From NCBI GenBank assembly GCA_040007095.1, contig JBDTVS010000181.1, forward strand, positions 1,643-65,642: a stretch of DNA of 64,000 nucleotides, given 5' to 3'. This DNA is from Acidobacteriota bacterium. Lineage in GTDB: Bacteria > Acidobacteriota > Vicinamibacteria > Vicinamibacterales > CAVVIG01. Below the pieces are notes generated by a model. The model had not been told where the DNA came from. It searched no databases and saw only the letters and a program-made list of their open reading frames with translations. Shown in pieces: positions 9,077-27,443 of the stretch; the first letter of the stretch is position 1, and every line of letters starts with the position of its first letter. The position numbers and the translations under genes are program-made.

Positions 9077-9086
9077 TCAGCAGATT

Positions 9087-11519: not shown

Positions 11520-11523
11520 CTTC

Positions 11524-12177: not shown

Positions 12178-13326
12178 GTGACACAAGGTCCCCCATTTCG
12201 TGCCGAGCATGTCGGCAGCCTGCTCCGTCCTGAAACGCTCCTCAAAGCGCGCGCCGCCGCGGAGGGCGATCAGTACCGCCGCTCCAGCGGCCCACTCACG
12301 TACACGCAGCTGAAAGAGATTGAAGACGAGGCGATCCGCGACGTCGTGCGCCTGCAGGAGGATGTCGGTCTGCAGGTCGTGACCGACGGCGAGTTTCGCC
12401 GCCGCTCCTGGTTTCAGGATTTCATCCTGTCGTTGACAGGTACCGACATCACCTTTGTCGAGTCGTCGCAGACGGTGTCGGCGGCGTTGCCGTTTCAGGA
12501 CGACGCCACCATCGAGAAGCTCCCCGGCCATATCGTGCGGGTCACCAAGAAACTGGCGCGGGAGAAGGGCATCTTCACCGAACATTTTGCCTTCCTGAAG
12601 AATCTGACGAATCAAACGCCCAAGATCAGCCTGCCGTCGCCGAGCATGCTGCATTTCTGGGGAGGCCGGGCGGCCATCGACGCGGCGGTCTACCCGGATC
12701 TCGCCGAATTCTGGGAGGACGCCGTCAACATCTGGGTCGCCGAGATCAAGGCGCTGTATGCATTGGGCTGCCGTTACATCCAGATCGACGATGTGACTTT
12801 TCCGCTGATCTGCGATCCGAACGGTCAAGCGGCGCTGCGCCAGCGTGGCGACGATCCGGCCGAAATCCTGAGCACGTATGCGGGCGTCCTGACGCGGATC
12901 GCCGCCGGTGCGCCCGCCGACATGACGATCGGCATGCACATGTGCCGCGGAAACAACCGCGGAAAGTGGATGGGCAGCGGCGGATACGAGTACGTCAGCG
13001 AGGTGGTGTTCCGCCAGGTCGGCATCGCCAACTACTTCATGGAGTACGACAGCGATCGTGCCGGCGATTTCGCGCCGCTGCGCCACGTTCCGGCGGGCAA
13101 GCGGGTCATCCTCGGCCTGGTCTCGTCGAAAACGCCCGTGCTCGAGTCCCGCGACCTGCTCAAGCGCCGCATCGACGCCGCGGCGAAATACCTGCCGCTC
13201 GAACAGTTGTGTCTGAGTCCGCAGTGCGGCTTTGCCAGCAACTTCATGGGCAACCCGGTGACCGCCGACGATCAGCGCCGTAAGCTCGAACTGGTCGTCG
13301 AAACCGCCCGGGAAGTCTGGGGATGA
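12178..13326 (+). CDS. Cobalamin-independent methionine synthase II family protein (short single-barrel MetE-like, YxjH type)
   Basis: Motifs FRAEHVGSLLRP, TDGEFRR, HMCRGN (Zn His/Cys), EYDSDRAGDF, LSPQCGFAS. Confidence 0.9.
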   Translation: MTQGPPFRAEHVGSLLRPETLLKARAAAEGDQYRRSSGPLTYTQLKEIEDEAIRDVVRLQEDVGLQVVTDGEFRRRSWFQDFILSLTGTDITFVESSQTVSAALPFQDDATIEKLPGHIVRVTKKLAREKGIFTEHFAFLKNLTNQTPKISLPSPSMLHFWGGRAAIDAAVYPDLAEFWEDAVNIWVAEIKALYALGCRYIQIDDVTFPLICDPNGQAALRQRGDDPAEILSTYAGVLTRIAAGAPADMTIGMHMCRGNNRGKWMGSGGYEYVSEVVFRQVGIANYFMEYDSDRAGDFAPLRHVPAGKRVILGLVSSKTPVLESRDLLKRRIDAAAKYLPLEQLCLSPQCGFASNFMGNPVTADDQRRKLELVVETAREVWG

Positions 13327-13330
13327 CGAC

Positions 13331-13540
13331 GGTCCGGCTGAAGCCGGCTACAACGGTCCGGCTGAACAATGGTCCGATTGAAGCCCGGCTGAAGCCGGAC
13401 ACTACGGACGAACCGCTGGGGCCAATCGTATGTATGGCCGCCTTTCAGACGGACCGTAGTGCCGATGGTAGGTATGGGCGCCTTCAGACCGACTGTGGTG
13501 CCGATCGTATGTAGTGTCCGCCTTCGGGCGGACCGTGGAC
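13331..13540. repeat. REP cluster (GTCCGGCTGAAGCCGGACACTAC family): forward copies followed by three reverse ~40-nt units
   Basis: Copies at 13331-13351 and 13385-13406. Tandem units at 13422-13461, 13462-13500 and 13501-13540, ending gtagtgtccgccttcgggcggacc. Confidence 0.85.
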
Positions 13541-13553
13541 CGTGGTGCACGGG

Positions 13554-14561
13554 ATGACTATGGAACTGCAGTCCCTCGGCTACGTGGGGATTCGCGCGCG
13601 CGACGTGGACGAGTGGGCGGATTTCGGCGTCAAGCTCCTCGGCATGCAGATCGTCGATCGGAGCCGTTCGACGCTGACCTTTCGCATGGACGATCGGCGC
13701 CAGCGCGTTGTCGTGCATGGTGACGGCGGTGAAGGGGCCGCGTTTCTTGGCTGGGAGGTGGCCGACGCCGCGGCGCTTGGCGCGTTGGCGGGGCGGCTCG
13801 AAGCCTCTGGCGTCGGCGTCCGGCGATTGCCGGCGGCGGTCGCCGACGAGCGGCGCGTCGCGGAGGTTCTGGCGTTCCGCGATCCGATTGGCAATACCCT
13901 CGAGGCGTTTCATGGCGCTGAAGTCGCCTCCGATCCGTTTCGGCCCGGTCGCGCCATCTCAGGGTTCCGCACCGGTCCGCTCGGCATGGGCCACGTCGTG
14001 ATGAACGTCGAGCGGATCGACGACGTGCTGCCGTTCTATCGGGACCTGCTCGGCTTCCAGCTGAGCGACTACACGCTGCGTCCGTTCAAAGCGTTCTTCT
14101 TCCATCTCAATCCCCGTCATCACAGCTTCGCGATGGTCGAGACCGGGACGAACAGCGTGCACCATGTGATGGTCGAAACTTTCATGCTGGACGACGTCGG
14201 CCAGGCCTATGACCTCGCGCAGGGGGAAGAAGGGCGCGTTGCGACCACGCTCGGCCGACACTCGAACGACTTCATGACGTCGTTCTATGCGCGCACGCCC
14301 TCTGGGTTCTTCGTCGAGTACGGCTGGGGGGGGCGATCGATTGAGCCGGCGACCCACGAGCCGGTCGAGATGACGTGCGGACCGAGCCTCTGGGGCCACG
14401 ACCGCGATTGGCTGACGGTCGAGGGGCGCGCCGAAGCTCGCGCGCTCCGGCTGCAGGCGGCCGCCGATGGGCGGCGCGAACCGGTACAGGTCCTCGACGG
14501 CAATTACGCGCTCGCGCCCGGAACCTGCGGGTGGTTCGATAACCTGCGCACCCGATCCTGA
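13554..14561 (+). CDS. Type I extradiol ring-cleavage dioxygenase (BphC/HsaC-like, VOC fold)
   Basis: Motifs SLGYVGI, FRMDDRRQR, GMGHVV, NPRHHSFA, HHVMVE, LGRHSND, SFYARTPSGFFVEYGWG. Confidence 0.92.
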   Translation: MTMELQSLGYVGIRARDVDEWADFGVKLLGMQIVDRSRSTLTFRMDDRRQRVVVHGDGGEGAAFLGWEVADAAALGALAGRLEASGVGVRRLPAAVADERRVAEVLAFRDPIGNTLEAFHGAEVASDPFRPGRAISGFRTGPLGMGHVVMNVERIDDVLPFYRDLLGFQLSDYTLRPFKAFFFHLNPRHHSFAMVETGTNSVHHVMVETFMLDDVGQAYDLAQGEEGRVATTLGRHSNDFMTSFYARTPSGFFVEYGWGGRSIEPATHEPVEMTCGPSLWGHDRDWLTVEGRAEARALRLQAAADGRREPVQVLDGNYALAPGTCGWFDNLRTRS

Positions 14562-14681
14562 TGTCGACGTTCAGGAAGCACAACGACCGCAGCGATCACG
14601 GAAGCCGGTTCTTTGTGCCCTTTGTGGTTCATCATCTAATCCGCAACCTGCTCTGAGCGGTTATCAATCTGGGGGTTCAAC

Positions 14682-16043
14682 ATGGCGGCGCCGCGGACCG
14701 TGGTCAAGATCGCCGAAGTGATCGACAACGCGCAGGTGGGGAGGCTCCAGATCAGCCTCTTCATGCTGTGTGCTGCCTGCCTCATTCTTGACGGCTTCGA
14801 CGTCCAGGTGGTTGGCTACGTCGCGCCGACGATCTTCCAGGAATGGGGCGTTCCGCGCTCGGTGCTGGGCAACGTGCTGGCCGCGGGCAATTTCGGCGTC
14901 CTGCTGGGCTCGCTGGTGTTCACGATGGTCGCCGACAAGGTCGGGCGTCGGCCGGTACTGCTGTGGGCGACGGTGTTCTTTTCGCTGTTGACGCTTGTGA
15001 CGGCGCAGGTGACGTCGGTGCAGCAGCTCACCATCGTTCGCTTCATCGCGGGCATCGGCCTCGGGTGCATCATCCCCAACGCGACGGCCCTGATCGGCGA
15101 ATACAGCCCGCGCCGCCTGCGCATCACGTTCATGGCCTGCATCTCGGTGGGATTCACCGCCGGGGGGGCACTGGCGGGCTTTGTGTCGGCGTGGTTGATT
15201 CCGGCGTTCGGCTGGCGCGCGGTGTTCTATTTCGGCGGCGTGACCCCACTGGTGATTGCGGCGTTCATGTTCGTCGGGCTCCCAGAGTCGCTCCAATTTC
15301 TGGTGCTCCGGCGCGGCGACCGCCAGAAAGTGGCGCACTGGCTTCGCCGCATCGATCCCAGCGTGGCGACAGGTCCGCAGGTCGAGTTCGTGGTCCAGGA
15401 AGAAAACAAGTCCGGTGTCCCGGCGTTCCATCTGTTCAGGGAAGGCCGGGGAGCGACGACGCTGTTGTTGTGGCTCATCAACTTCATGAACATCTACAAC
15501 CTGTACTTGCTGTCGGGGTGGCTGCCGACCATCGCCGGTCAGCTTGGCTATTCGGCCCAGACCAGCGTGCTCATCGGCACGACACTGCAAGTGGGTGGCA
15601 CGCTCGGCACCTTCTGGCTGACATGGTTCATCGGCAAGTGGGGATTCATCCCCGTGCTGACGACCTGCTTCCTGGTGGCGTCGGCGAGCATCGCGGCGAT
15701 CGGCCAGCCCGGTCTTGCGCTCTGGGTGCTGGTCACCACCGTGTTCGTCGCCGGGTCGTGCGTCGTCGGCGGACAACCGACGGTCAATTCCATGGCGGCC
15801 GTGTACTACCCGACGTATCTGCGTTCGACCGGCATTGGCTGGTCGCTGGGGATTGGCCGTGCCGGAGCGATTCTGGGACCATGGCTGGTGGGGCGCTTCG
15901 TCGCGGCGAATTGGTCGGTGCAGGACATTCTGTATTCCGCCGCGATTCCAGCGCTGGTGTCGGCGCTCGCGATGTTCTGCCTGCACTGGGTGATGAAGCC
16001 GCAGCAGCAGGCTCCTGCTGCGCCGGTGGTGATCGCGCACTAG
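14682..16043 (+). CDS. MFS aromatic acid:H+ symporter (PcaK/GenK/MhpT family)
   Basis: Motifs LILDGFD, ADKVGRRP, EYSPRRLR, YYPTYLRSTGIGW, about 12 hydrophobic segments. Confidence 0.92.
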   Translation: MAAPRTVVKIAEVIDNAQVGRLQISLFMLCAACLILDGFDVQVVGYVAPTIFQEWGVPRSVLGNVLAAGNFGVLLGSLVFTMVADKVGRRPVLLWATVFFSLLTLVTAQVTSVQQLTIVRFIAGIGLGCIIPNATALIGEYSPRRLRITFMACISVGFTAGGALAGFVSAWLIPAFGWRAVFYFGGVTPLVIAAFMFVGLPESLQFLVLRRGDRQKVAHWLRRIDPSVATGPQVEFVVQEENKSGVPAFHLFREGRGATTLLLWLINFMNIYNLYLLSGWLPTIAGQLGYSAQTSVLIGTTLQVGGTLGTFWLTWFIGKWGFIPVLTTCFLVASASIAAIGQPGLALWVLVTTVFVAGSCVVGGQPTVNSMAAVYYPTYLRSTGIGWSLGIGRAGAILGPWLVGRFVAANWSVQDILYSAAIPALVSALAMFCLHWVMKPQQQAPAAPVVIAH

Positions 16044-16339
16044 ACCTTCTCAAGCCAGAGTCTCGCAAGATGAAGCACGTTGTGCTCGGTTCGGCTTTGG
16101 AAGCTGTCTGAGTTGCGGCCGCTGAGCGGCCGCCTCGTGAAGATTCGCCGCACCCTGGTCCGTTCTGGCTGGTCGGTTTGAGGCGAAGCTTCACTGACAG
16201 CCCGTGGTCCCGCGTCGCATCGAGACGGGCGAGGCGCGCTGGAAAACTCTCGGCGGCCGCCGCGAAGATCGCGGCTCGTTCGCTCAAAAACCGCCGCGAG
16301 TAACCTGCGTTAAGCACGTCGCGCGACGTCGTGCAAGTG

Positions 16340-16369
16340 TTGACGTCGTGATTCGCCTTGGGGTAGCAT
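16340..16369 (+). promoter_or_regulatory. Sigma70-type promoter for the second MetE-like gene
   Basis: TTGACG-N18-TAGCAT, preceded by the perfect palindrome acgtcgcgcgacgt (16316-16329). Confidence 0.55.
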
Positions 16370-16392
16370 CCTTCGGTTTCAGTCAGCTTCGC

Positions 16393-16481
16393 CATTCAGA
16401 CAACGCCGAGTGCCAAACCCAGGCGCCCGGCTGTCAATTGCTGGCAGATCGACACACCGAAAAACAGAGGACCTCTGAATG
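16393..16481 (+). promoter_or_regulatory. Structured 5' leader with alternative pairings over RBS and start codon (candidate translational switch)
   Basis: Hairpin at 16399-16435. cattcaga (16393-16400) is complementary to tctgaatg (16474-16481). A cagag/ctctg mini-hairpin covers the RBS. Confidence 0.4.
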
Positions 16482-17588
16482 ACAACGAAGATCGTCGACA
16501 CCATTCTTCCCACGACCATGGTGGGATCCTATCCCCGGCCCCACTGGTTCAAGCACCAGTTGCTCGGTCGCGACATTCAGGTCGCGTTCAAGGAAGTTCA
16601 ACACGAAGAGGCGTACGTCGACGCCGTGGCGACCGTCATCCGCGATCAGGAAGAAGCGGGCCTCGACATCGTGACCGACGGCAACATGTGGTACGACGAC
16701 TACGTCGGCGTCATCGGTTCGTTTTGCTGGTACATGTACGAGCGGATCGGCGGCTTCGAGCAAGCCAGGGAGCCGCATCCGTCGTATGCCGATTCTACCG
16801 ATGAGAGTCTGGGGAGAGACCTCCTCGACGACTGGGGTGGCGTCATCAACAGCGGGCCGGTAACCCACGGGCCCCTCCGCCTCGCCGATCTCTACAAGAT
16901 TGCCAAGAAGCATGCGCACGTCCCGGTGAAGGTGTCGGTCGGGGCCGGCCCCGCGAACCTTGCCTGGCATGCGTACTTCAAGCACTACAAGAACGCGAAG
17001 GAACTGAGCCTCGCGCTGGCGCCAATCTTCAACGCCGAGATGAAATCGCTGGTCAAGGCGGGCGCCAAGTACCTGCAGTTCGAAGACCTCGGTGCGTGGC
17101 TGCCGCTGTTCACCGGCGACAAGAACGACTACACGTGGATCAAGGACGTCGTCGCTCGGTGCTGCGACGGCGTGGACGCCACGATTGGCTGGCACTTCTG
17201 TTACGGGAATGCCTGGGGCAACGACATTCTGAGCGCCAGTTTTCCCGAGGGCTACCAGACGGTCCTTCCTCATTTCTTCGACACCCCCGGCATCGACGGG
17301 TTCGTGCTCGACTACGCGAATCGCGACATGGCCGGCATCGAGTTCATGAAGAACCTGCCAAAGGACAAACACCTCCAGGTGGGCGTCGTCGACATCCGCA
17401 CCAACGCGATGGAAACGCCGGCGCAGATTGTCGCCCGGATCAAGAAGGTGCTTGATGCCGTGCCCGCCGAGCGTGTGATTCTCAGTACGGACTGCGGCAT
17501 GAAGCCGCTCGCCCGCATGGTTGCCAAGCAGAAGCTGAGAGCGCTCAGCCAGGCCGCGCAGATCGTGCGGAAGGAGTTGGGCGCTTAG
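16479..17588 (+). CDS. MetE-like Zn thiol-alkyltransferase (methionine synthase II / epoxyalkane:CoM transferase-like)
   Basis: Motifs LPTTMVGSYPRP, RDQEEAGLDIVTDG, HFCYGN, VGVVDIR, STDCG. Confidence 0.88.
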   Translation: MTTKIVDTILPTTMVGSYPRPHWFKHQLLGRDIQVAFKEVQHEEAYVDAVATVIRDQEEAGLDIVTDGNMWYDDYVGVIGSFCWYMYERIGGFEQAREPHPSYADSTDESLGRDLLDDWGGVINSGPVTHGPLRLADLYKIAKKHAHVPVKVSVGAGPANLAWHAYFKHYKNAKELSLALAPIFNAEMKSLVKAGAKYLQFEDLGAWLPLFTGDKNDYTWIKDVVARCCDGVDATIGWHFCYGNAWGNDILSASFPEGYQTVLPHFFDTPGIDGFVLDYANRDMAGIEFMKNLPKDKHLQVGVVDIRTNAMETPAQIVARIKKVLDAVPAERVILSTDCGMKPLARMVAKQKLRALSQAAQIVRKELGA

Positions 17589-17591
17589 GGC

Positions 17592-17636
17592 CCGGGCGGG
17601 AGTAAGCCGGGCGGGAGTAGGCCGGGCGGGAGTAAG
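17592..17636. repeat. 15-bp tandem repeat x3
   Basis: ccgggcgggagtaag / ccgggcgggagtagg / ccgggcgggagtaag, directly after the stop codon. Confidence 0.9.
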
Positions 17637-17649
17637 GCTGTCAACTGTG

Positions 17650-17742
17650 GGCGTCGAGGCGCCCGCCCGACAAGGCGCGAGGAGCGCGCATACCGGGCGT
17701 ATGTAAGCGACGAGCAACGCAGCCCCGGCGGGAGTTGGAAGC
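17650..17742. repeat. Palindromic extragenic element (CAAGGCGCGAGGAGC...GAGCAACGCAG type)
   Basis: Internal catac/gtatg hairpin and gcccgcccg/cggcggg flanks. Resembles a dispersed repeat type I recall from GC-rich genomes (inference). Confidence 0.45.
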
Positions 17743-17803
17743 GGACACGTTATGCGGCGAGGACGGCTTTGAGGCCGTCCCACAACACGAGGAAACAGGA
17801 AAT

Positions 17804-18772
17804 ATGGCCGACAAGAAAATCATTGCGGTAGTGGGATCCACCGGCGCGCAGGGCGGTGGTCTGGTCGAGGCGATTCTGGCCGATCCGAATGGCGGATTCG
17901 GCGCCCGCGCGATCACGCGCGACACAGCCAAGGACAAGGCCACAGCGATCGCCGCCAAGGGCGGGGAAGTGGTCCAGGCCGATCTCGATGATGTCGAGAG
18001 CTTGAAAAAGGCGTTCGCGGGGGCATACGGCGTGTATGCCGTGACCAATTTCTGGGAGCACTTCTCCGGCGAGAAAGAAAAGACCCAGGCCAAGAACATC
18101 GCCGACGCGGCGAAGGCCGCCGGCGTCCAGCACGTGATCTGGTCGACGCTCGAAGACACGCGGACCTTGATGCAGGCCGACGACAAGCGCATGCCGATGC
18201 TGCAGGAGAAGTACCGGGTGCCGCACTTCGACGCGAAGGCCGAAGCGGACGCGTTCTTTCAGGGGGTGCCCACCACGTTCCTGGTGACGTCGTTCTACTG
18301 GGACAACCTCTATTCGTTCGGTCTCGCGCCCAAGAAAGGTGCTGACGGCCAGTACGAGTGGACGTTCCCCATGGGCGACAGCAAGCTGGCGGGCATCGCG
18401 GTCGAGGATATCGGCAAGGTCGCGTACGGGATCTTCAAGGCCGGTCAGCAGTATGTCGGCAAGACGGTGGGCATCCTGGGTGAGGCCCTGACGATCAGCG
18501 AGATGGGCGAGAAAATCTCGACCGCGATGGGCGTCGGTCCGGTCCGCTACAACGCCGTCGACGCGGACCTCTACCGCAGCTTTGGATTCCCGGGCGCGGA
18601 CGAGATGGGCAACATGTTCCAGGTGTACCGCGATTTCGCCGCCGAAGTGCTGGCGGCGCGCAGCGTGGACGTGGCGCGGCAGCTCAATCCGCAGCTTCAG
18701 AGCTTCGATCAGTTCCTCGCGAAGAACAAGAGCAAGATCGAGCCTGCGATGAATCCCGCGCCGGCACAGTAG
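17804..18772 (+). CDS. NmrA/HSCARG family NAD(P)-binding protein
   Basis: Motifs VVGSTGAQGG, AFAGAYGVYAVTNFWE, IWSTLED, PHFDAK. AGGA RBS before ATG 17804. Confidence 0.92.
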   Translation: MADKKIIAVVGSTGAQGGGLVEAILADPNGGFGARAITRDTAKDKATAIAAKGGEVVQADLDDVESLKKAFAGAYGVYAVTNFWEHFSGEKEKTQAKNIADAAKAAGVQHVIWSTLEDTRTLMQADDKRMPMLQEKYRVPHFDAKAEADAFFQGVPTTFLVTSFYWDNLYSFGLAPKKGADGQYEWTFPMGDSKLAGIAVEDIGKVAYGIFKAGQQYVGKTVGILGEALTISEMGEKISTAMGVGPVRYNAVDADLYRSFGFPGADEMGNMFQVYRDFAAEVLAARSVDVARQLNPQLQSFDQFLAKNKSKIEPAMNPAPAQ

Positions 18773-18800
18773 CATCGAGCACGCTCACAGAGCTCAGGAC

Positions 18801-18843
18801 GGGGCTCAGAGATCAGGTGCTTGTTACCCGATCGCTGAGCCCC
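18801..18843 (+). terminator. Stem-loop after the NmrA gene
   Basis: ggggctcag / ctgagcccc stem with an inner gatc pair and a weak T tail. Confidence 0.4.
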
Positions 18844-18984
18844 TTGCGTTGTCGCCCCCGGGCCGGATGCCGCTCTTGCGGCGCATTTTCACGTGCAAAT
18901 GCCACCACGACCGCACGAAGACACAGAAGAGTCATCCTGTCTTGGCTGTGGCGCCTTCATCACGGAGTACACTGACTAACCCGC

Positions 18985-19866
18985 ATGGCAAACCTCGGAT
19001 ACGTCGGCCTCGGCGCGATGGGCGGCCTCATGGCCGAGCGTCTAATCAGCAAGGGCCATTCGGTCACCGGCTACAACCGCACGAAGTCGAAGGCGCAAGG
19101 ACTCATCGACCAGGGGATGCAGTGGGCTGATTCGCCGCGCGAGGTCGCGGCGGCATCCGAGGCGACCTTCGTGATGGTGACCAATTCCGCCGCGCTCGAA
19201 GCGGTGGCCAACGGTCCCGATGGATTGCTCGCCGGACTGGGCAGCGGTAAGCTGCTCATCGACATGAGCACGGTCAGCCCGGCGGTCAGCCGCGCGTTGG
19301 CTCTGAGAGTCCGCGCCCAGGGTTCGGACATGGTGGATGCTCCTGTCTCCGGCAGCGTCGTCACGCTGCAGCAGGGCAAGTTGTCGGTGATGGTCGGCGG
19401 TGAGAAGGGCGGCTTCGATCGGGCGAAGCCGCTGCTCGACGACGTCGGACCGCGGGTGACGCACGTGGGTCCCAACGGGCTTGCACTGTCGATGAAGATC
19501 GCGATCAATCTCAGCCTGGCCGTGCAGATGCTGGCGTTCTCAGAAGGCCTGCTACTGGCGGAGAAGAGCGGCATTCCGCGCGAGGTCGCCGTCGACGTGA
19601 TGACCCACAGCGTCATCGGATCGCCGATGGTGCAATACCGGGGACCGATGGTGCTCAACATGCCGGAGGAAGCCTGGTTCGACGTCAACATGATGCAGAA
19701 AGACATGTTGCTCGCCCTCGAGATGGGCCGGCAGCTGGACGTGCCGCTCCCGACCACGGCGGTGACCAACGAGATGCTGACGGCGGCGCGGGGGATGGGG
19801 CTCGCGAAAAAGGATTTCGCAATCCTGTTCGAAGCGCTGTCGCGTATGGCAGGAGTCCAGAAATGA
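18985..19866 (+). CDS. NAD(P)-dependent beta-hydroxyacid dehydrogenase (3-hydroxyisobutyrate/tartronate semialdehyde reductase family)
   Basis: Motifs GYVGLGAMG, IDMSTVSP, DAPVSGS, MKIAIN, MMQKDM. Confidence 0.92.
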   Translation: MANLGYVGLGAMGGLMAERLISKGHSVTGYNRTKSKAQGLIDQGMQWADSPREVAAASEATFVMVTNSAALEAVANGPDGLLAGLGSGKLLIDMSTVSPAVSRALALRVRAQGSDMVDAPVSGSVVTLQQGKLSVMVGGEKGGFDRAKPLLDDVGPRVTHVGPNGLALSMKIAINLSLAVQMLAFSEGLLLAEKSGIPREVAVDVMTHSVIGSPMVQYRGPMVLNMPEEAWFDVNMMQKDMLLALEMGRQLDVPLPTTAVTNEMLTAARGMGLAKKDFAILFEALSRMAGVQK

Positions 19867-20864
19867 CTGTAACGGCGAAAAAGAAGGCGGGTGTCGCCGA
19901 CGACATCGGCGCTGAACGTCTCCTGCACATGTACCGGCAGATGGTGGCGATCCGCCTGTTCGAGGAGCGTGTCAACGATCTCTACACCCGCGCGCTGATG
20001 CCCGGGTTGGCGCATCTGTACATCGGGGAAGAGGCGATCGCGGTCGGCATCTGCGAGGTGCTCACGCGCGAGGACTACATCACGAGCACGCACCGGGGTC
20101 ATGGCCACTGTCTCGCGAAGGGTGCGTCGCCGGATCGCATGTTTGCGGAGCTGCTCGGCAAAGAAGCGGGCTACTGCAAGGGCAAGGGCGGATCGATGCA
20201 TATTGCCGATCCGGCCACCGGCAACCTCGGCGCCAATGCCATCGTCGGCGGCAGTGCGGGCATTGCCACGGGCGCGGCCTTCTCCGCCAAGTATTTGAAA
20301 ACCGGGCAGGTGTCGGTGTGCTTCTTCGGTGAGGGCGCCCTCGGCCAGGGTTTGCTCTACGAGGAGATGAACCTCGCGCAGTTGTGGAAGCTGCCGGTCA
20401 TCTTCGTCTGCGAGAACAACGGCTACAACGAGTACACGCATTTTTCCGAGTCGACGGCCGGCGACGTGTGCGCGCGCGCCGCCGCGTTCGGCATCCGGAC
20501 CGAGACGGTCGACGGCCAGAACGTCCGGGCCGTCTACGCTGCGGCCCAGGCCCATATCGAGCGAGCGCGAAACGGTGAGGGCCCGGCCTTTCTCGAGTTC
20601 AAGACGTACCGCTACCACGGGCATCACGTCGGCGACATCGCCCGGGCGTACTACCGCCCGAAGGCGGAAGAAGAGGAATGGGTCACCGAGCGGGATCCCG
20701 TCACCCTCCATGGGCAGTGGCTCATGGCGAATGGCGTGGCCGATCGCGCTGCCCTCGATGCGATTCAGGACGAGCTCGTCGCGCAGATGGATGCGGCGGT
20801 GGAGTTTGCCGTCGGCTCGTCCTACCCGGACCCCAGCAAAGTGGACCAGGACATCTATGCTTGA
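19863..20864 (+). CDS. TPP-dependent dehydrogenase E1 alpha subunit (AcoA/PdhA-like)
   Basis: Motifs HLYIGEEA, STHRGHGH, GKGGSMH, FFGEGA...ENNGY. ATGA overlap with the upstream gene. Confidence 0.93.
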   Translation: MTVTAKKKAGVADDIGAERLLHMYRQMVAIRLFEERVNDLYTRALMPGLAHLYIGEEAIAVGICEVLTREDYITSTHRGHGHCLAKGASPDRMFAELLGKEAGYCKGKGGSMHIADPATGNLGANAIVGGSAGIATGAAFSAKYLKTGQVSVCFFGEGALGQGLLYEEMNLAQLWKLPVIFVCENNGYNEYTHFSESTAGDVCARAAAFGIRTETVDGQNVRAVYAAAQAHIERARNGEGPAFLEFKTYRYHGHHVGDIARAYYRPKAEEEEWVTERDPVTLHGQWLMANGVADRAALDAIQDELVAQMDAAVEFAVGSSYPDPSKVDQDIYA

Positions 20865-21858
20865 GACTGCCACACCGGTGCGAGAGCTGTCGTTCGGCGA
20901 CGCGATCAAGGAAGCCATCGCAGAAGAGATGCGCCGCGATCCGAGCGTAATCCTCATGGGAGAGGACGTGGCGGAGGCGGGCACGACCTTCAAGGTGCTC
21001 ACCGGGCTCGTCGACGAGTTCGGCAAGGATCGCATCATCGATACGCCGATTTCCGAAGCCGGCTTCACCGGCCTCGGGGTCGGCGCCGCCATGACCGGTC
21101 TGCGTCCGATCGTCGACATCATGTTCGGCGATTTCCTGACGATCATCATGGACCAGGTCGTCAACCAGGCGGCCAAGATCCACTACATGTCCGGGGGGCA
21201 CTGGAAGGTGCCGATGGTCGTTCGCTGCACGATGGGCGCGACGCGCCGGTCCGCGGCGCAGCATTCGCAGTCGCTGCACGCATGGCCGAGTCACATTCCC
21301 GGGTTGAAGGTGGTGGTGCCTTCGACGCCCTACGACGCGAAGGGACTGTTCAAGTCCGCGATTCGCGACGACAACCCGGTCGTGATCTTCGAGCACAAGA
21401 TCAGCTATCGGAAGGTCAAGGGGCCGGTGCCGGAGGGCGAATACGTCATCCCGCTGGGCGTTGCCGACGTGAAGCGGACGGGGAGCGACCTGACGATCAT
21501 CGCGCTCAGCAGCATGGTGCAGGTGGCGCTCGGCGCCGCCAAGCTGCTCGAGGACGTGGGCGTCAGCGTGGAGGTCGTGGATCCGCGTACCACGTGGCCG
21601 CTCGACGAGAAGGCGCTGATTGAGTCGGTGAAAAAGACCTCGCGCTGCATCGTGATGGACGAAGGCTACGGTCGTTATGGTGTGGCCGCCGAGCTCGCGG
21701 CGGTGGTGGCCCAAGGGGCGTTCTATCATCTCGACGCGCCGGTCTCGCGGCTGTGCGCGATGCACGTGCCGATACCGTTCTCGCCCTCGCTTGAAGACGT
21801 GACGGTGCCGAACGAGCGGCAGGTCGTCGACCTGGCGTTGAAGCTGTGCGGGAAATAG
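20857..21858 (+). CDS. TPP-dependent dehydrogenase E1 beta subunit
   Basis: Motifs MGEDV, DTPISEAG, AAQHSQS, IRDDNPVVIFEHK, PIPFSPSLE. Overlaps the E1a stop. Confidence 0.93.
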   Translation: MLETATPVRELSFGDAIKEAIAEEMRRDPSVILMGEDVAEAGTTFKVLTGLVDEFGKDRIIDTPISEAGFTGLGVGAAMTGLRPIVDIMFGDFLTIIMDQVVNQAAKIHYMSGGHWKVPMVVRCTMGATRRSAAQHSQSLHAWPSHIPGLKVVVPSTPYDAKGLFKSAIRDDNPVVIFEHKISYRKVKGPVPEGEYVIPLGVADVKRTGSDLTIIALSSMVQVALGAAKLLEDVGVSVEVVDPRTTWPLDEKALIESVKKTSRCIVMDEGYGRYGVAAELAAVVAQGAFYHLDAPVSRLCAMHVPIPFSPSLEDVTVPNERQVVDLALKLCGK

Positions 21859-21983
21859 ATGAAGGCCACCACCAGGCTGACCGGATGCGGCCAGAACACG
21901 AATCAGTGGCTCGGTCGCCGGCGCGACACGTTGCGGCGAGAATGAGCACAGTGGCGCGGCGTGCGCGCCGGGCGCTTGACGAC

Positions 21984-22023
21984 TCGGTGGTCGATCCGAT
22001 TATTCGGCGGTCGATCCGATTAT
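21984..22023. repeat. 20-bp tandem duplication overlapping a possible promoter
   Basis: tcggtggtcgatccgattat / tcggcggtcgatccgattat. TTGACG at 21976 with GATTAT 16 nt downstream. Confidence 0.75.
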
Positions 22024-22046
22024 GTGGTGTCCGGCGTCAGCCGGAC
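22023..22046. repeat. REP copy
   Basis: tgtggtgtccggcgtcagccggac. Confidence 0.75.
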
Positions 22047-22064
22047 TGTCAGAGGAGGTAAGTC

Positions 22065-23411
22065 GTGGCGATCAAAACCTACGGAACGATGGCGGTCGAT
22101 TGGGAACGGCGGATCGACTTCGATCGGCTGCGTCGCGAGCGTCTGGATCGGGTCAAGGACCTGCTGGTGAAGTCCGAAATGGGCTCGGTGCTGTGCTTCG
22201 ACATGAACAACGTGCGCTATATCACGGCGACGCACATCGGCACCTGGGCGCAGGACAAGATCAGCCGCTTCACGCTGCTCGCGCAAAACGACGAACCGAT
22301 CCTGTGGGACTTCGGATCGGCGGCCAGGCACCACGCGCTCAATTGCGACTGGCTCGGCGAGCGGTCGCGCGCAGGCATTCCGTTGATGCGCGGCGCGATG
22401 TCGCCCGAGATGGGACGCGCCGAAGAGGTCGCCAAGAAGATTCGCGTCGAGCTCGAGATGCGCGGCCTGCACAAGGAGCCGGTCGGCGTGGACGTCGTCG
22501 AGCCGCCGATCTTGTTCGCGTTGCAGAAGGAAGGCCTGACGATCGTCGACGGTCAGCAGCTGATGTCGAACGCCCGCGAGATCAAGACGCAGGACGAAAT
22601 TTCGCTGTTGACCCATTCCGCAGCGATGGTCGACGCGGCGTACCACGACCTCTACGAAGCGATGAAGCCGGGGATGCGAGAGAACGAAGCGGTCGGGCTC
22701 GTCGCGAAGCGGCTCTACGACCTCGGATCGGAGTACGTGGAAGGCGTGAACGCCATCTCCGGCGAACGCTGCAGCCCGCATCCGCACGTGTTCTCGGACC
22801 GGATGCTGCGACCAGGCGATCCGGTGTATTACGACGTGCTCCATTCCTACATGGGCTATCGCACGTGCTACTACCGCAGTTTCGCGATCGGCTCCGCCTC
22901 CCACGCGATGAACGACGCCTACAAGCGGTGCCGCGACTATCTCGACGCGGCGATCGAGCTGGTGCGGCCAGGACGGACGACCGCAGAGATTGCCGCGGTG
23001 TGGCCCAAAGCGCAGGAGTTCGGGTTTCCGAGCGAGGAAGCGGCGTTCGCGCTGCAGATGGGTCACGGCATCGGCCTCGCGATCTGGGAAAAGCCGATGA
23101 TCAGCCGTCTGGTGTCGCTCGAACACCCCCACGAGATCAAGCCGGGGATGGTGTTCGCGCTCGAGACGTTCTGGCCCTCGACAGACGGCTGGACGGCGGC
23201 CCGGATCGAGGAAGAAGTCGTCGTGACTCCGACCGGTCACGAGGTCATCACTCGGTTCCCCGCTGAGCAGTTGCTGGTCTGTGGTCGACCGTACGTGACC
23301 GTCAGCGGCCCGCTGCCGACAACGCGGGAGCTCGAAGCGCCGCCGAACCGGGAAGTGCTGGACATGATCGCGGCCGGCGCCAAGGCTGAGAGCGTCGGAG
23401 CGAATCCCTGA
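22065..23411 (+). CDS. M24 (Xaa-Pro peptidase/creatinase fold) family protein with altered metal ligands
   Basis: GAGGAGG RBS + GTG start, creatinase-type N-domain, motifs KTQDEI, GHGIG, FALET, RIEEEV. Confidence 0.9.
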   Translation: MAIKTYGTMAVDWERRIDFDRLRRERLDRVKDLLVKSEMGSVLCFDMNNVRYITATHIGTWAQDKISRFTLLAQNDEPILWDFGSAARHHALNCDWLGERSRAGIPLMRGAMSPEMGRAEEVAKKIRVELEMRGLHKEPVGVDVVEPPILFALQKEGLTIVDGQQLMSNAREIKTQDEISLLTHSAAMVDAAYHDLYEAMKPGMRENEAVGLVAKRLYDLGSEYVEGVNAISGERCSPHPHVFSDRMLRPGDPVYYDVLHSYMGYRTCYYRSFAIGSASHAMNDAYKRCRDYLDAAIELVRPGRTTAEIAAVWPKAQEFGFPSEEAAFALQMGHGIGLAIWEKPMISRLVSLEHPHEIKPGMVFALETFWPSTDGWTAARIEEEVVVTPTGHEVITRFPAEQLLVCGRPYVTVSGPLPTTRELEAPPNREVLDMIAAGAKAESVGANP

Positions 23412-23453
23412 GCGTTGTAATTCCACGATTCGTTTCTTGACACCAGTACACAT

Positions 23454-24701
23454 ATGGCCGTAAGCGTCGTCATGCCAGCCCTCGAAATGGCCCAGGAAAC
23501 GGGCAAGCTGATTTCCTGGAAAAAGAAAGAGGGCGAGAAGGTCCTCAAAGGAGAAATGCTCCTTGAGGTCGAGACCGACAAGGCCGTCGTCGAAATCGAG
23601 GCCCAGGCCGAGGGGATCCTTGGCGGCGTGACCGCGCAGGTGGGCGACGTCGTCCCGGTGGGTCAGACCATTGCCTGGCTGCTGAAGGCCGGCGAACAGG
23701 CGCCCATCACCACGACCCAGACGCAGACCGGACGAACGATGGACAAGGCCGCCGCGACGGCCGCTCCGGTGGTCACCGCTCCGGCGGGTGACGTGACCCC
23801 GGCCGGTCCGGCGCGGCTGTCGCCAAAAGCGCGACGTTTGGCCAAGGAGCTCGGTGTTGACGTCAGTCGACTCCGCGGTTCGGGGCCTGATGGCGAAATC
23901 GTGGCCGCGGACGTTCAGGCCGCCCAGGCCGCTGGCCGCGCCGCTCCGGCGTTTGCGCCTCCAGTCGTGTTGCCGACCGCTGCGGCCACTGCGACCAGCG
24001 CTCCAGCCGATATCGGATCGCTGAGCTCGATCGGCCGCCTGATGGCGCAGCGGACGACACAGAGCTGGACCACGGTTCCGCATTTCTTCGTCACTCGCGA
24101 AGTCGACGGCAGCGCCCTGGTCGCGCTTCGCCAGAAGTTGAGTCCGTCGATTGAAAAGAACCGCGGCGTAAAGCTTACCTACACCGATCTCCTGACCGCG
24201 ATCGTCGCGCGCGTGTTGAAGCAGCACCCGCGTTTGAACGCGAGTTGGATCGACGACACCATCAAGGCGAATCCAGAAGTGAAGATGGGTCTGGCCATGG
24301 CAGTGAGCGACGCCGTGGTGGTCGCGGTCGTCAACGGGGCTGATAGCGGCGACCTGGCTGGTGTGGCCGTCCAGCGGCGCGATCTTGCCGAGCGTGCACG
24401 CACCGGCAAGCTGACGCCAGGCGATATCACCGGTGCGACCTTCACGATCAGCAATCTCGGGATGTATCACGTCGATCAGTTCACGGCGATCATCGTTCCG
24501 CCGCAGGCCGCGATTCTGGCGGTTGGCGCGATGACCGATCGCGTCGTGCCGATGCCCGGTGCGTTGATACCGATCGGCGTGAAACCCATGCTGACTTTGA
24601 CGCTGTCGTGCGACCACCGCGTAGTCGACGGCGCCCGCGGCGCGGCCTTTCTCCACGACGTCGTCGAGGCCATTCAGGCGGCGGACAAGCACTTCGCGTA
24701 G
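23454..24701 (+). CDS. Dihydrolipoamide acyltransferase E2
   Basis: Lipoyl motif ETDKAVVE, E3-binding domain LSPKARRLAKELGVD, TFTISNLG, catalytic DHRVVDG. Confidence 0.93.
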   Translation: MAVSVVMPALEMAQETGKLISWKKKEGEKVLKGEMLLEVETDKAVVEIEAQAEGILGGVTAQVGDVVPVGQTIAWLLKAGEQAPITTTQTQTGRTMDKAAATAAPVVTAPAGDVTPAGPARLSPKARRLAKELGVDVSRLRGSGPDGEIVAADVQAAQAAGRAAPAFAPPVVLPTAAATATSAPADIGSLSSIGRLMAQRTTQSWTTVPHFFVTREVDGSALVALRQKLSPSIEKNRGVKLTYTDLLTAIVARVLKQHPRLNASWIDDTIKANPEVKMGLAMAVSDAVVVAVVNGADSGDLAGVAVQRRDLAERARTGKLTPGDITGATFTISNLGMYHVDQFTAIIVPPQAAILAVGAMTDRVVPMPGALIPIGVKPMLTLTLSCDHRVVDGARGAAFLHDVVEAIQAADKHFA

Positions 24702-24758
24702 CGCGGCGACAAGTGTGGCGACGTTTCCGGCGCTGAAGCCGGGAGCATTGTTCGGTCG

Positions 24759-24901
24759 AGCAGGTTGCTGAAAAACCAGCAACCTGAACTTAAGAGTGAG
24801 AACTCAGAACTTTGAAGTGCGAATTACCTGGCAATCTCGCATTCCTTCTAAGCTCTCACTTCTGAGTTTTCAGTTCGGGTTGCGTTTTTCAGCAGCCTGC
24901 T
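24759..24901. mobile_element. 143-bp palindromic MITE-like element with 17-bp terminal inverted repeats
   Basis: agcaggttgctgaaaaa / tttttcagcagcctgct (16/17), inner gcaacctgaact / agttcgggttgc, heptamer repeats inside, no ORF. Confidence 0.6.
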
Positions 24902-25035
24902 AGAGTCTGGACATCACGTACCTGTGAAAACGCACGAACTCGAGTTCGCGTCGTGGGCGTTGGTTGCGATTTCGGCGGCGTTCTCATCAATCGCGCAAGG
25001 AATCAGCGGCGGAATCGATAGTCTGGAGGCATAGC

Positions 25036-25653
25036 ATGCAGACACGACGATGGATTGTCGTGACGATCATCAGTTTGCTCGTCACGATACCGACGGCGGC
25101 GCAGGAGCGTGGACAACGCGCGGCGGGCGCAGCCGCCCCGGCAGGTCCCGCCATGACGCTGACGATACGGGCGTTCCCGGATGGCGGTCCCATTCCCGTG
25201 AGATTCAGCCAGGCCGCTGAAGGTGCCGCGCCGGGCGAAGGCACCTCGCCAGCGATCACCTGGGCCAACCCGCCGGCGGGTACTCAGTCGTTCCTCCTCA
25301 ACATGCACGATATGGACGTCGCTCGCAACAAGACGACCGACGACCAGGCGCACTGGGTCGTTTGGAATATTCCGGCGACAGCCACCGGTTTGCCCGAGGG
25401 AGTGCCGAAGGGGCCGCAGTTGGCGGACGGCAGCCATCAAATCAGTGCCACCGGCCAGGTCTATCGCGGGCCGGGCGCGCCGGCCAACGGACCACCGCAC
25501 CACTACATGTTCGAGCTCTATGCCTTGGACACCAAGCTCGACGTCCAACCGACCGCCGACGCGTTCGAGACGCGTGCAAATGTCGTGAAGGCAGCGCAGG
25601 GGCATATCCTCGGTAAAGCGGTCTACGGCGGCCTGTTCAGGCGTCCGCAGTAG
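25036..25653 (+). CDS. YbhB/YbcL family (PEBP, Raf kinase inhibitor-like) exported protein
   Basis: GGAGG RBS, signal peptide, motifs MHDMD, HWVVWNIP, YRGPGAP, HHYMFELYALD. Confidence 0.92.
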   Translation: MQTRRWIVVTIISLLVTIPTAAQERGQRAAGAAAPAGPAMTLTIRAFPDGGPIPVRFSQAAEGAAPGEGTSPAITWANPPAGTQSFLLNMHDMDVARNKTTDDQAHWVVWNIPATATGLPEGVPKGPQLADGSHQISATGQVYRGPGAPANGPPHHYMFELYALDTKLDVQPTADAFETRANVVKAAQGHILGKAVYGGLFRRPQ

Positions 25654-25703
25654 ATCGCAATCTGGGTAGGAGTGAGTCTGACTAGCGCATTTCTCGTCAA
25701 TAA

Positions 25704-25903
25704 GTAGGCGTCCGCCTTCAGGCGGACTATCACGGTCCGGCTAAATAGCCGGACGCTGCGTCGTTCCCGGCGATTCCCGACGTATTCCTCGCACCCCTCT
25801 CGAGCTCCGCCGTCCGGCTAACGCTCACCTCGGCGACGGTTGAGCCCGACACGACAATCCGGCAGTTGATCGACAGCACGGAGTGTCCGGCTTGAGCCGG
25901 ACC
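25704..25903. repeat. REP cluster between convergent genes
   Basis: gtccgccttcaggcggac (25710-25727), gtccggctaaatagccggac (25735-25754), gtccggcttgagccggac (25885-25902). Confidence 0.8.
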
Positions 25904-25925: not shown

Positions 25926-27443
25926 TCAGCCCTCCATGGCCAGCTCACTCTGCAGGCTCGTCATGTCGCGTCCGATGGTCGCGACCGCGAGCGTGCGATC
26001 GCCGCGCTTGTAGTTGATTGCGCAGTCGCGGGCGTCGAGCGCGCCGTCGATCTGGACGGCATCCCAGTGTTCCGCGTGCCCCACATAGTTGATCGTGACG
26101 TCGTAGTGCTGGCTCCAAAAGAACGGCACCGCCTCGAATCGCTCGGCGAATCCGAGCATGTTCCGCGCCGCGACCTGACCCTGGCGTTGGGCGACGACCC
26201 AATGTTCGACGCGGATGCGCTCACCCGAGTGAGGATCCGGCCACCGCGCGACATCGCCGGCGGCGAAGATGCCAGGCGCACTGGTCTCGAGATACTCGTT
26301 GACGGCGATCCCGCGGTCGATGGTCAGCCCGGCCTGCTCGGCAAGACTTATCGCGGGCCGCACGCCAACGCCAAGCACGACGAAGTCCGCGTCGATCGTC
26401 GTCGCGTCGGTCAGCGCGACGGTACGCCCGTCGACGCGAGCGACGGTTTGCCCCAGGTGAAATGTCACGCCGTGTGCTTCGTGGAGCCGCCGGATGAACT
26501 CTCCGACTTCCGGTCCCATGATGCGCTCCAGCGGCTGATGGTCCGGCGCGACGACGTGGACGGCGAGTCCGCGCGCGTTCAGAGACGCCGCGACCTCGAG
26601 GCCGATGAAGCTCGCCCCGACGATCACCACGCTCTTCGCCGCCGCGGCTTTGGCGACAATGGCGCGGCTGTCCGCGAAGGTGCGAAGGTAATGGACCTGC
26701 GAGTCGGTCGCGCCCGGGATGCTCAACCTCACGGGCTCCGCGCCGGTCGCGATCAGCAGACAATCGAACCCATACGAACGACCGCTCTCGAGTTGGACCT
26801 GCTTCTGTCGGACGTCGAGCGAGGACACCCTCGAATTCAGGACGATGTCGATCTTTCGTTCCGTGTAGTACTCGAGAGATCGCAGCGGAATCCAATCCTC
26901 GCCGGCGGTACCTGCGAGGAAGTCCTTCGACAGATTCGGTCGATCGTTGGGCGGATAGTCGTCGGCGCTGAGCATGGTCAGCGGACCGTCGTAGCCTTCC
27001 CGGCGAAGCATGTCCGCGCCGGCGAGGCCCGCGCCGCCTCCACCGATGATGACCACCGAAGCGGGAGAGCGTCGCGCACTCGGAGCAGGCCGCGCGGGTT
27101 CAGACGCCGGCTCCTGCCGCTTCTCGCGCACGAACACGGTGTCGCCGACGCGCTCCACACGCCAGCAGGCGATCGGATCCAGGGCCGGGGCGCGCAGCGC
27201 TTCTCCGGTGCGAAGGCTGAAACACGCATGGTGCATGGGACATCGCACGGAGTCGCCGTCGATGAGACCATCGGCCAGCGGAGCATGATAGTGCGTGCAC
27301 AAGGCGCCGACGGCAAACAGGTCGTCTCCCCGACGTACCAGGAGCACATCCTCGCCGTCGACATGCCCGAGCACCTTGCCGTTGTCCGGAAGGTCCGTGA
27401 GCGGAAGTCCGCTTTTGAAGTCCGGCCCCGAAGCCTGATCCAT
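25926..27443 (-). CDS. Rieske [2Fe-2S] domain fused to FAD-dependent pyridine nucleotide-disulfide oxidoreductase (AIF3-like)
   Basis: CTHYH...CPMHH Rieske ligands, GGGGAG and GASFIG dinucleotide motifs, TSAPGIFAAGD, RVEHW, PFFWS. Confidence 0.93.
   Translation of the reverse strand: MDQASGPDFKSGLPLTDLPDNGKVLGHVDGEDVLLVRRGDDLFAVGALCTHYHAPLADGLIDGDSVRCPMHHACFSLRTGEALRAPALDPIACWRVERVGDTVFVREKRQEPASEPARPAPSARRSPASVVIIGGGGAGLAGADMLRREGYDGPLTMLSADDYPPNDRPNLSKDFLAGTAGEDWIPLRSLEYYTERKIDIVLNSRVSSLDVRQKQVQLESGRSYGFDCLLIATGAEPVRLSIPGATDSQVHYLRTFADSRAIVAKAAAAKSVVIVGASFIGLEVAASLNARGLAVHVVAPDHQPLERIMGPEVGEFIRRLHEAHGVTFHLGQTVARVDGRTVALTDATTIDADFVVLGVGVRPAISLAEQAGLTIDRGIAVNEYLETSAPGIFAAGDVARWPDPHSGERIRVEHWVVAQRQGQVAARNMLGFAERFEAVPFFWSQHYDVTINYVGHAEHWDAVQIDGALDARDCAINYKRGDRTLAVATIGRDMTSLQSELAMEG

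Follow-up and report, generated by a model that had tools for sequence, protein, structure and literature searches.

Dehydrogenase complexes that use thiamine diphosphate (TPP) and lipoate are well studied, and to our knowledge none described so far carries an enzyme of the pita-bread fold in its operon. Here we analyze a five-gene operon at positions 18985–24701 of a 64,000-nucleotide stretch of contig JBDTVS010000181.1 (assembly GCA_040007095.1), from a member of the Vicinamibacterales in the phylum Acidobacteriota; this whole stretch is referred to below as the window. The operon encodes the E1α, E1β and E2 components of a TPP/lipoate dehydrogenase, a dehydrogenase of the 3-hydroxyisobutyrate dehydrogenase (HIBADH) family and, embedded between E1β and E2, an M24-fold protein in which Cys occupies a metal-ligand position. 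A full-text literature search found no paper on an M24 gene in an operon of the acetoin dehydrogenase (aco) or pyruvate dehydrogenase (pdh) type, and we found no description of this combination in the literature searched.

Acetoin dehydrogenase (AcoA/AcoB/AcoC/AcoL) resembles the window operon in its heterotetramer-type E1 α/β with a TPP motif and its lipoyl E2. The window E1α is 45–50% identical to plasmid genes annotated as acoA or acetoin E1 (Thermus, Burkholderia), and an aldehyde-oxidising enzyme often lies nearby in relatives of the operon. Unlike the aco system, the window operon lacks AcoL and includes an M24 gene and a HIBADH-type dehydrogenase gene; we know of no aco operon that contains these two. 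Similarity to PdhABCD lies in the best-scoring hidden Markov models (HMMs) for E1α, E1β and E2, all of which represent pyruvate dehydrogenase (PDH) components, and in the closest solved structure to E1α, human PDHA1. In contrast to PdhABCD, the window operon is not the sole or housekeeping PDH, since aceE-aceF-lpdA lies elsewhere in the genome, and its distribution is patchy (7 of 301 genomes).

A non-peptidase M24 enzyme within a catabolic cluster is known from ectoine breakdown, where EutD/DoeA is paired with Ssd/DoeC, an aldehyde dehydrogenase resembling succinic-semialdehyde dehydrogenase (SSADH) (PMC13188858). The window M24 protein is similar in fold to the ectoine enzyme (6twk/6yo9, template-modelling (TM) score 0.70), but it reaches 60 bits versus 613 (TIGR02993) and 575 (NF038259) for DoeA, and the acidobacterial loci contain TPP/lipoate enzymes instead of a deacetylase or aminotransferase. 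Finally, a review of open annotation problems (PMC8305020) lists in a table oadhAB2 and oadhAB3 of Haloferax volcanii as orphan acetoin-type E1 pairs for which no substrate was found, with pyruvate and 2-oxoglutarate excluded. A comparable E1 pair in H. mediterranei has a Cys-site M24 gene beside it; unlike the window operon, the H. volcanii pairs are archaeal and lack an adjacent E2, and the Haloferax E1α falls outside the acidobacterial clade.

The operon consists of the following genes:

18985–19866, plus strand: HIBADH-like dehydrogenase (Pfam NAD_binding_2, PF03446, and NAD_binding_11, PF14833)
19863–20864, plus strand: E1α, the TPP-binding subunit (Pfam E1_dh, 249.8 bits)
20857–21858, plus strand: E1β (Transket_pyr and Transketolase_C)
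22065–23411, plus strand: M24-fold protein (Peptidase_M24, 128 bits)
23454–24701, plus strand: E2 dihydrolipoyl acyltransferase (Biotin_lipoyl, E3_binding and 2-oxoacid_dh)

The listing of open reading frames (ORFs) and domain scans recovered all five genes as proposed in an earlier sequence-only reading of this DNA, together with the two overlaps described there: an ATGA joins the stop codon of the HIBADH-like gene to the start of E1α, and E1α and E1β share 8 nt, the true start of E1β being the ATG at 20857. The M24 gene begins with a GTG preceded by GAGGAGG and is separated by 206 nt from E1β and by 42 nt from E2. The E2 is complete, with a single lipoyl domain (ETDKA), an E3-binding domain and a catalytic domain (DHRVVDG). 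The absence of E3 (lipoamide dehydrogenase) reported by the same reading also holds for the 64-kb window, in which the sole match to the lipoamide dehydrogenase model (80 bits) falls in an opposite-strand Rieske-FAD reductase; no dedicated E3 of the AcoL type is encoded in the window.

Comparison across genomes and metagenomes revealed that this gene order recurs far beyond chance. Scanning a single genome for each species yielded 228 stretches that encode relatives, of which the best 80 (M24 79–92% identical) were kept; these come from metagenome-assembled genomes of Vicinamibacterales and Terriglobales, plus three contigs labelled Acidimicrobiia or Bifidobacteriaceae. Another 80 loci were taken from JGI metagenomes and include a more distant clade at 69–73% identity. 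The metagenome matches are mostly close relatives, and the deep diversity of Cys-site M24 proteins is sampled only through plasmid records. For genome loci with enough flank (71 upstream and 71 downstream), E1β was present in 67, E1α in 66 and the HIBADH-like gene in 64, and E2 lay downstream in 62 of 71; the corresponding metagenome loci (40 upstream and 58 downstream) had E1β in 39, E1α in 39, the HIBADH-like gene in 33 and a downstream E2 in 53 of 58. Most of the apparent gene losses among the genome loci fall in long-read assemblies with frameshifts. Over the combined set of 160 loci, the M24 gene holds its place between E1β and E2 in about 90% of the well-flanked cases. The sequence-only reading had named a lack of conservation of M24 with E1/E2 as evidence that would count against it, and the 160 loci show the opposite; its proposal of a dedicated route that includes the M24 enzyme is supported by the near-universal linkage of M24 to E1/E2, which extends to non-acidobacterial replicons. 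The order of steps that it suggested, from cleavage by M24 through oxidation by the dehydrogenase to formation of an acyl-CoA by the complex, is plausible as a proposal.

Within 49 five-gene loci, mean identity to the window was 83% for M24, 78% for E1β, 76% for E1α, 73% for the HIBADH-like protein and 58% for E2, so that conservation within the operon is highest for M24. Because the flanking sequences differ from lineage to lineage, the five genes behave as one unit. An M24 orthologue was present in seven of 301 evenly sampled Acidobacteriota genomes, and these seven are about 80% identical across classes; the operon is therefore an accessory, horizontally spread module.

Two observations in this data set are set apart. 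The contigs labelled Bifidobacteriaceae (L010 and L018) and Acidimicrobiia (L022) carry an M24 gene 84–86% identical to that of the window with E1α upstream, and mis-binning is more likely than transfer, at least for L010 and L018. An apparent M24–E2 fusion (P0048; L081, 10001–12166, 721 aa) was rejected as probably an assembly artefact, because the E1α, E1β and HIBADH genes of that contig are each split by frameshifts.

Analysis of the M24 protein revealed an altered metal site. HMMER alignment to DddP gave the ligand set D257 (YYDV), C268 (GYRTCYYR), H334 (HGIG), E367 (ALET) and E382 (IEEE). Cys replaces one of the two bridging Asp ligands, since the alignment reads Cys at that position; the roles of the ligands and catalytic residue are presumably those established by structural work on DddP. 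C268 is invariant or nearly so among M24 homologues down to 33% identity, and Cys therefore marks a large M24 subfamily. A second change, Trp for the second His of HGxGxxxHE (HGIGLAIWE), is narrower than the Cys, being common to Rhodococcus, Paenarthrobacter and one 55% identical relative; the M24 proteins of Phaeobacter and of Streptomyces sp. YIM 121038 retain the second His. The window protein also has a C-terminal tail of about 40 residues (roughly 405–448) with a predicted helix. Homologues of the acidobacterial and actinobacterial clade keep this tail, and those of Phaeobacter, Streptomyces YIM and Haloferax lack it.

The AlphaFold model (pLDDT 83.7) has two domains and a creatinase/DddP-like pita-bread fold. 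Its top Foldseek matches are DddP structures (4b28/4s00, TM 0.76–0.78 over about 424 columns, 22–23% identity), followed by prolidases, creatinase and ectoine hydrolase, and the best HMM is likewise that of DddP (NF043017, 117.9 bits versus a cut-off of 600), with prolidase, ectoine hydrolase and aminopeptidase models lower. DddP (PDB 4b28, 4rzy, 4s00) is thus the best full-length match in sequence and fold over both domains, and the NxRY motif of the N-domain and four metal ligands are common to the two proteins. In contrast to DddP, to which its identity is that low, the window protein has Cys for a ligand Asp, and the residue aligned with Asp377, which we take to be the catalytic Asp of DddP, is not Asp. 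Nor does the protein fit an M24B Xaa-Pro peptidase: it retains four of the five ligands and has Cys for the second Asp, its motif is altered, and the PepQ and PepP models score far under their cut-offs. Because four ligands are kept and a thiolate replaces a carboxylate, a metal-dependent, non-peptidase activity appears the most reasonable prediction from the residues at the site. A paralogue in the same genome (contig C105, 35% identity) has no informative neighbours.

Of the dehydrogenase components, E1α scored 341.8 with TIGR03182 (cut-off 393.85), and E2 fell below all equivalog cut-offs (best TIGR01349, 293.2 versus 445). E1β was below the equivalog NF008854 (392.5 versus 454) and above the subfamily model NF006667 (387.8 versus 321), which is the only model passed; none of the three proteins reaches the equivalog level for a PDH of the E1 α/β type. 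Elsewhere in the assembly (8.56 Mb, 243 contigs), contig C143 carries a canonical aceE (1426 bits), E2 and lpdA together, and the genome holds four further E1α/β sets. Given the separate aceE-aceF-lpdA set and the lack of an operon E3, the operon therefore encodes an extra complex that must borrow its E3. The sub-cut-off scores and the separate aceE-aceF-lpdA set show that this E1 is not the housekeeping PDH. As a separate observation, the whole assembly gave no match to a 2-oxoglutarate dehydrogenase E1 (TIGR00239) at E≤1e-20. Since contig C160 breaks off next to an E2 and an incomplete E3, the gene may have fallen into an assembly gap, or the organism may use another kind of 2-oxoglutarate enzyme.

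Ranking E1α by identity placed the M24-linked Rhodobacterales proteins from annotated plasmids first (58–63%). A rhizobial clade at about 50%, whose genes belong to sugar or polyol clusters, lies in the range of the annotated acetoin E1 genes, as do Acinetobacter and Enterococcus proteins without annotation or with a generic one (46–50%); pdhA-annotated plasmid genes are at 38–43%. A small tree joins the M24-linked E1α proteins of Acidobacteriota and Rhodobacterales (support 80/93) and sets them apart from the genome's own paralogues and human PDHA1. Two E1α motifs that the sequence-only reading had singled out are indeed present, FFGEGALGQG (GEG...ENNGY) and the YRYHGHHVGD loop, and both proved to be less distinctive than suggested. 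GEG is kept in 48 of 50 acidobacterial orthologues (the Phaeobacter orthologue has GDG), but it is a common variant that also occurs in two other E1α paralogues of the same genome and in branched-chain E1α; alignment to PDHA1 showed the loop to be the canonical YRYHGH loop with two changed residues.

The HIBADH-like protein contains the GLGAMGG Rossmann motif, DAPVSGS and the catalytic-Lys motif SMKIAIN, placing it in the family. It is under all NCBIfam equivalog cut-offs (best tartronate semialdehyde reductase, 223 versus 341), so that none of the named specificities, namely tartronate semialdehyde reductase, HIBADH, L-threonate dehydrogenase and sulfolactaldehyde reductase, is assignable. 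Its nearest solved relatives are 3pef and 3pdu, which we take to be Geobacter succinic-semialdehyde reductases, and 3doj, presumably the plant glyoxylate reductase GLYR1.

These results bear on one further account of the locus, a plain acetoin/2,3-butanediol or pyruvate dehydrogenase operon with an unrelated inserted M24 peptidase gene, which would be consistent with E1 and E2 belonging to the families of AcoABC and PdhABC. However, the M24 gene is linked to E1 in more than 90% of the 160 loci and again in a halophilic archaeon, purifying selection within the operon is strongest on M24, and M24 departs from the peptidase pattern at the metal site as well as at the second His of the motif. In addition, a housekeeping PDH lies elsewhere in the genome, and no AcoR, AcoX or AcoL occurs among the annotated neighbours. 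Synteny has thus already largely refuted this account, which we consider very improbable.

Several recurrent neighbours emerged from family scans and from clustering the complete ORF set of the 80 genome loci. A GabD1-like aldehyde dehydrogenase gene adjoins the operon, alongside E2, in 38 of 80 loci, its product scoring 660 bits versus the cut-off of 730 for NADP-dependent succinic-semialdehyde dehydrogenase. A short-chain-acid transporter gene (AtoE/TIGR00366) is divergent from the operon in Vicinamibacterales (25/80 loci), and a GntR-FCD regulator (25/80) and a TonB-dependent receptor (20/80) are found in Terriglobales; a short-chain dehydrogenase/reductase (SDR) gene follows E2 in 12/80. 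Because the partners include the AtoE transporter, the GntR-FCD regulator and SSADH-type enzymes, acetoin itself is probably not the substrate. The same neighbours, being transporters, catabolic regulators and aldehyde dehydrogenases, argue against a biosynthetic role in which E1/E2 would move a two-carbon unit from a ketose to a carrier in the manner of quinocarcin or renieramycin assembly. RenH of the renieramycin cluster is among the distant E1α matches (32% identity), but no gene for a nonribosomal peptide synthetase, polyketide synthase or carrier protein was present in any examined locus, and we regard such a role as extremely unlikely.

Searches with tblastn against annotated plasmids identified M24 homologues outside the phylum and established that the Cys-site M24 proteins form a wide subfamily linked to E1α/β in Rhodobacterales, Streptomyces, Paenarthrobacter and Haloferax. 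In the Rhodobacterales Phaeobacter, Tritonibacter, Marinovum and Pacificitalea (M24 55–57% identical), the gene order is SDR, M24, E1α, E1β, lipoyl protein, SSADH and E2 catalytic domain, followed by LpdA in Phaeobacter, where the locus extends that far; these genes face a sugar-type ABC system that comes with ThuA and a HIBADH-family gene. The cluster of Streptomyces sp. YIM 121038 (M24 55%) comprises the HIBADH-like gene, M24, SSADH, a vicinal oxygen chelate (VOC) family protein, a fused E1α-β and E2, and also holds a flavin reductase and a luciferase-like monooxygenase. In Paenarthrobacter (M24 61%), the module is the only metabolic cargo of a 42-kb plasmid and includes E2, fused E1, VOC, an amidase and a Liv-type ABC system, and further RidA, a cupin, a HIBADH-like gene, M24 and a flavin reductase. 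On pHM500 of H. mediterranei (M24 36%), M24 adjoins a pdhA-like E1α/β pair in a neighbourhood with SSADH, an aminotransferase and a second TPP enzyme. The gene upstream of a further 55% identical relative (P0121) ends in Transketolase_C and may be either E1β or a split transketolase, because E1β carries the same domain.

The Paenarthrobacter plasmids belong to sulfonamide degraders, but the sad genes are described on other replicons or positions, and nothing seen here ties the module to sulfonamide breakdown. As side observations, the plasmid of the sulfonamide degrader P. ureafaciens SD-1 (NZ_CP101190.1; L089/L096) also carries a Pycsar defence pair and a zeta toxin, and in strain R1 a copy of the module is on plasmid CP127116.1 together with sad genes.

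The position of M24 varies outside the Acidobacteriota, lying before E1α in Rhodobacterales and beside the HIBADH-like gene in Streptomyces. This variation argues against M24 being a physical fourth component of the complex that docks on E1 or E2, either handing over a labile intermediate or acting as a non-catalytic or regulatory subunit. Such a component could explain why M24 is the most conserved protein and has a fixed position between E1β and E2 within Acidobacteriota, and why the 40-residue tail with its predicted helix is kept in the acidobacterial and actinobacterial clade. There is also a precedent in an M24 ectoine hydrolase that forms part of a hydrolase–deacetylase complex, as indicated by the title of a 2020 paper by Mais et al. 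that PMC13188858 cites. However, the sole apparent M24–E2 fusion sits on a frameshift-ridden contig, and taken together we judge a docking role to be improbable.

We tentatively propose that the five genes make up a self-contained catabolic operon, spread horizontally, through which a small hydroxy-carboxylate would be degraded by way of an acyloin in a scheme resembling acetoin cleavage; we favour this reading while holding it at somewhat less than an even chance. The observations on which it is built are which genes are present, their intact domains, their translational coupling and co-conservation, the altered metal site and the provision of E3 in trans; from these we infer every chemical step and the step order. 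The Cys-site M24 enzyme, modelled on the action of DddP, creatinase and ectoine hydrolase on small carboxylates, would unmask the substrate as a hydrolase or lyase and not as a peptidase, by ring opening or removal of a leaving group. The HIBADH-like enzyme would then oxidise a hydroxyl beside another oxygenated carbon, giving an α-hydroxyketone (acyloin), and the acetoin-type E1 α2β2 would cleave the C–C bond of the acyloin with TPP, so that its acyl portion moves onto the E2 lipoyl arm and the remainder leaves as a carboxy-aldehyde (semialdehyde). E2 would form the acyl-CoA, its lipoyl arm being re-oxidised by a borrowed E3 (presumably LpdA of contig C143), and the semialdehyde would be oxidised by an aldehyde dehydrogenase such as the GabD-like enzyme that is operon-adjacent in many relatives; in the genome studied here such an enzyme would be encoded away from the operon. 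The presence of the GabD-like gene in 38/80 loci fits an aldehyde product, and the closeness of E1α to annotated acetoin-type E1, the nearest structures of the HIBADH-like enzyme and the recurrent AtoE-type transporter and GntR-FCD regulator also count in favour of the scheme. The acyloin scheme would use each recurrent gene once and account for an aldehyde dehydrogenase beside a complete E2.

Several points weigh against this proposal. The full-text literature search found no biochemical or genetic data on any member, the top-scoring HMMs for E1 and E2 are named for PDH components, and the ranking that places E1α near acoA depends on database names rather than on characterised enzymes. HIBADH-family enzymes usually oxidise the 3-hydroxyl of a carboxylate, not a vicinal diol. 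The genome itself is without a close orthologue of the linked aldehyde dehydrogenase (best paralogues 38–39%), and its transporter orthologue is unlinked (contig C19, 80% identity). In the small tree, the Streptomyces and Haloferax M24-linked E1 proteins are on long branches outside the clade formed by the acidobacterial and Rhodobacterales proteins, so the partnership of M24 with E1 may have more than one origin, perhaps with differing chemistry.

Because the best models for E1 and E2 are PDH components, a true 2-oxoacid is almost as probable a substrate as an acyloin. In that case the module would be the same, but E1/E2 would be a true 2-oxoacid dehydrogenase to which the HIBADH-like enzyme, the M24 enzyme or both supply an unusual 2-oxoacid for oxidative decarboxylation to an acyl-CoA, and the hydroxyacid dehydrogenase and GabD-like enzyme would separately turn a terminal CH2OH into COOH. 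L-threonate dehydrogenase is a precedent for a HIBADH-like enzyme that produces a 2-oxoacid, and the HIBADH-like protein gives 161 bits with the ThreonDh model. A 2-oxoacid route is further consistent with the HMM ranking, which covers E1α, E1β and E2 alike, with human PDHA1 as the best solved relative and with the complete 2-oxoacid dehydrogenase architecture of E2. Against it, all PDH equivalog cut-offs were missed, E1α is nearer to annotated acetoin-type E1 than to pdhA (45–50% versus about 40–42% identity), and an E2 plus an adjacent aldehyde dehydrogenase in many loci is explained less economically; we give this route a little less weight than the acyloin scheme, and well under an even chance.

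A number of specific substrates were considered under either chemistry and set aside, each fitting some of the genes, not all, and no test supporting any of them. These were dimethylsulfoniopropionate or S-methylmethionine, carnitine, 4-hydroxybutyrate and pantoate; guanidino acids (ketoarginine route), homoserine and L-threonate; and deoxy-sugar acids and products of Rut-like pyrimidine breakdown.

Other features in and around the operon are as follows:

17735–18772, plus strand: NmrA-like NAD(P)-binding protein (Pfam NmrA, 175.6 bits)
21984–22023, no strand assigned: tandem 20-nt direct repeat in two copies, TCGGYGGTCGATCCGATTAT, found by repeat search in the E1β–M24 spacer
24756–24904, no strand assigned: nested imperfect inverted repeats with arms of 21 nt and 23 nt, found by repeat search, about 150 nt directly after E2

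The NmrA-like gene had been noted upstream by the sequence-only reading and is present, but it is not a general feature of the operon. It likely starts at an ATG about 70 nt inside the ORF (MADKKII), and the 212-nt gap that separates it from the operon makes its membership doubtful; in relatives it adjoins the operon only in some Vicinamibacterales loci, in either orientation and with a MetE-like gene. The TCGGYGGTCGATCCGATTAT tandem repeat, which is overlapped by a σ70-like match at 21976–22003 from a promoter scan that was not above chance, could be an internal promoter, an operator or a repeat remnant. The same spacer in five relatives (L002, L004, L014, L045 and L058) contains, just ahead of the M24 start, long imperfect palindromes of short repeated words, which differ in sequence between genomes, resemble repetitive extragenic palindromic (REP) elements or miniature inverted-repeat transposable elements and are unrelated to the 20-nt repeat of the window. 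The inverted repeats at 24756–24904 probably mark the end of the operon, as a terminator or a REP-like palindromic element. No canonical T-tract terminator was found after E2, matches in promoter and terminator scans of the operon region were not above the shuffled expectation, and an Rfam scan of 17500–25800 gave nothing credible.

Upstream, positions 5560–17588 of the window hold genes for lignin-derived aromatics, among them a LigM-type vanillate/3-O-methylgallate O-demethylase (618 bits, above the cut-off of 580), two short MetE-like proteins, a BphC/HsaC-like extradiol dioxygenase and a major facilitator superfamily transporter; of the relatives, only the closest (L002, L004, L006 and L076) have this block ahead of the operon. 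Downstream lie a PEBP/YbhB-like gene (24964–25653) and, beyond it, a minus-strand gene (25926–27443) for a 505-aa fusion of a Rieske [2Fe-2S] domain with a ferredoxin-reductase-type FAD/NAD module.

A bolder proposal, which we hold to be unlikely, is that the Cys-site M24 proteins are a large unrecognised family with new pita-bread chemistry (lyase, isomerase or ring-opening activity on an oxo- or hydroxy-acid), that the acidobacterial form is an integral fourth component of its complex, and that the module, made up of hydroxyacid dehydrogenase, Cys-site M24 enzyme, acetoin-type E1 with or without E2 and SSADH-like aldehyde dehydrogenase, is an undescribed cross-domain pathway for a common small metabolite.

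Well over a hundred genomes and metagenome contigs from soil retain the partnership of M24 with the dehydrogenase complex, which also occurs on marine roseobacter plasmids, actinobacterial catabolic plasmids and a haloarchaeal megaplasmid. Such a distribution suggests that a widespread small compound is processed by a route not yet recognised, here in a rhizosphere organism, near-identical sequence being present in rhizosphere and soil metagenomes. Cultured and genetically tractable carriers of the module exist, among them Phaeobacter gallaeciensis DSM 26640 (plasmid NC_023141.1), P. inhibens P92 and H. mediterranei (pHM500). Solving the route would assign a function to a large family mis-annotated as "Xaa-Pro peptidase", could explain the orphan E1 pairs of Haloferax and would add a path of carbon flow for the abundant Acidobacteriota of soil.

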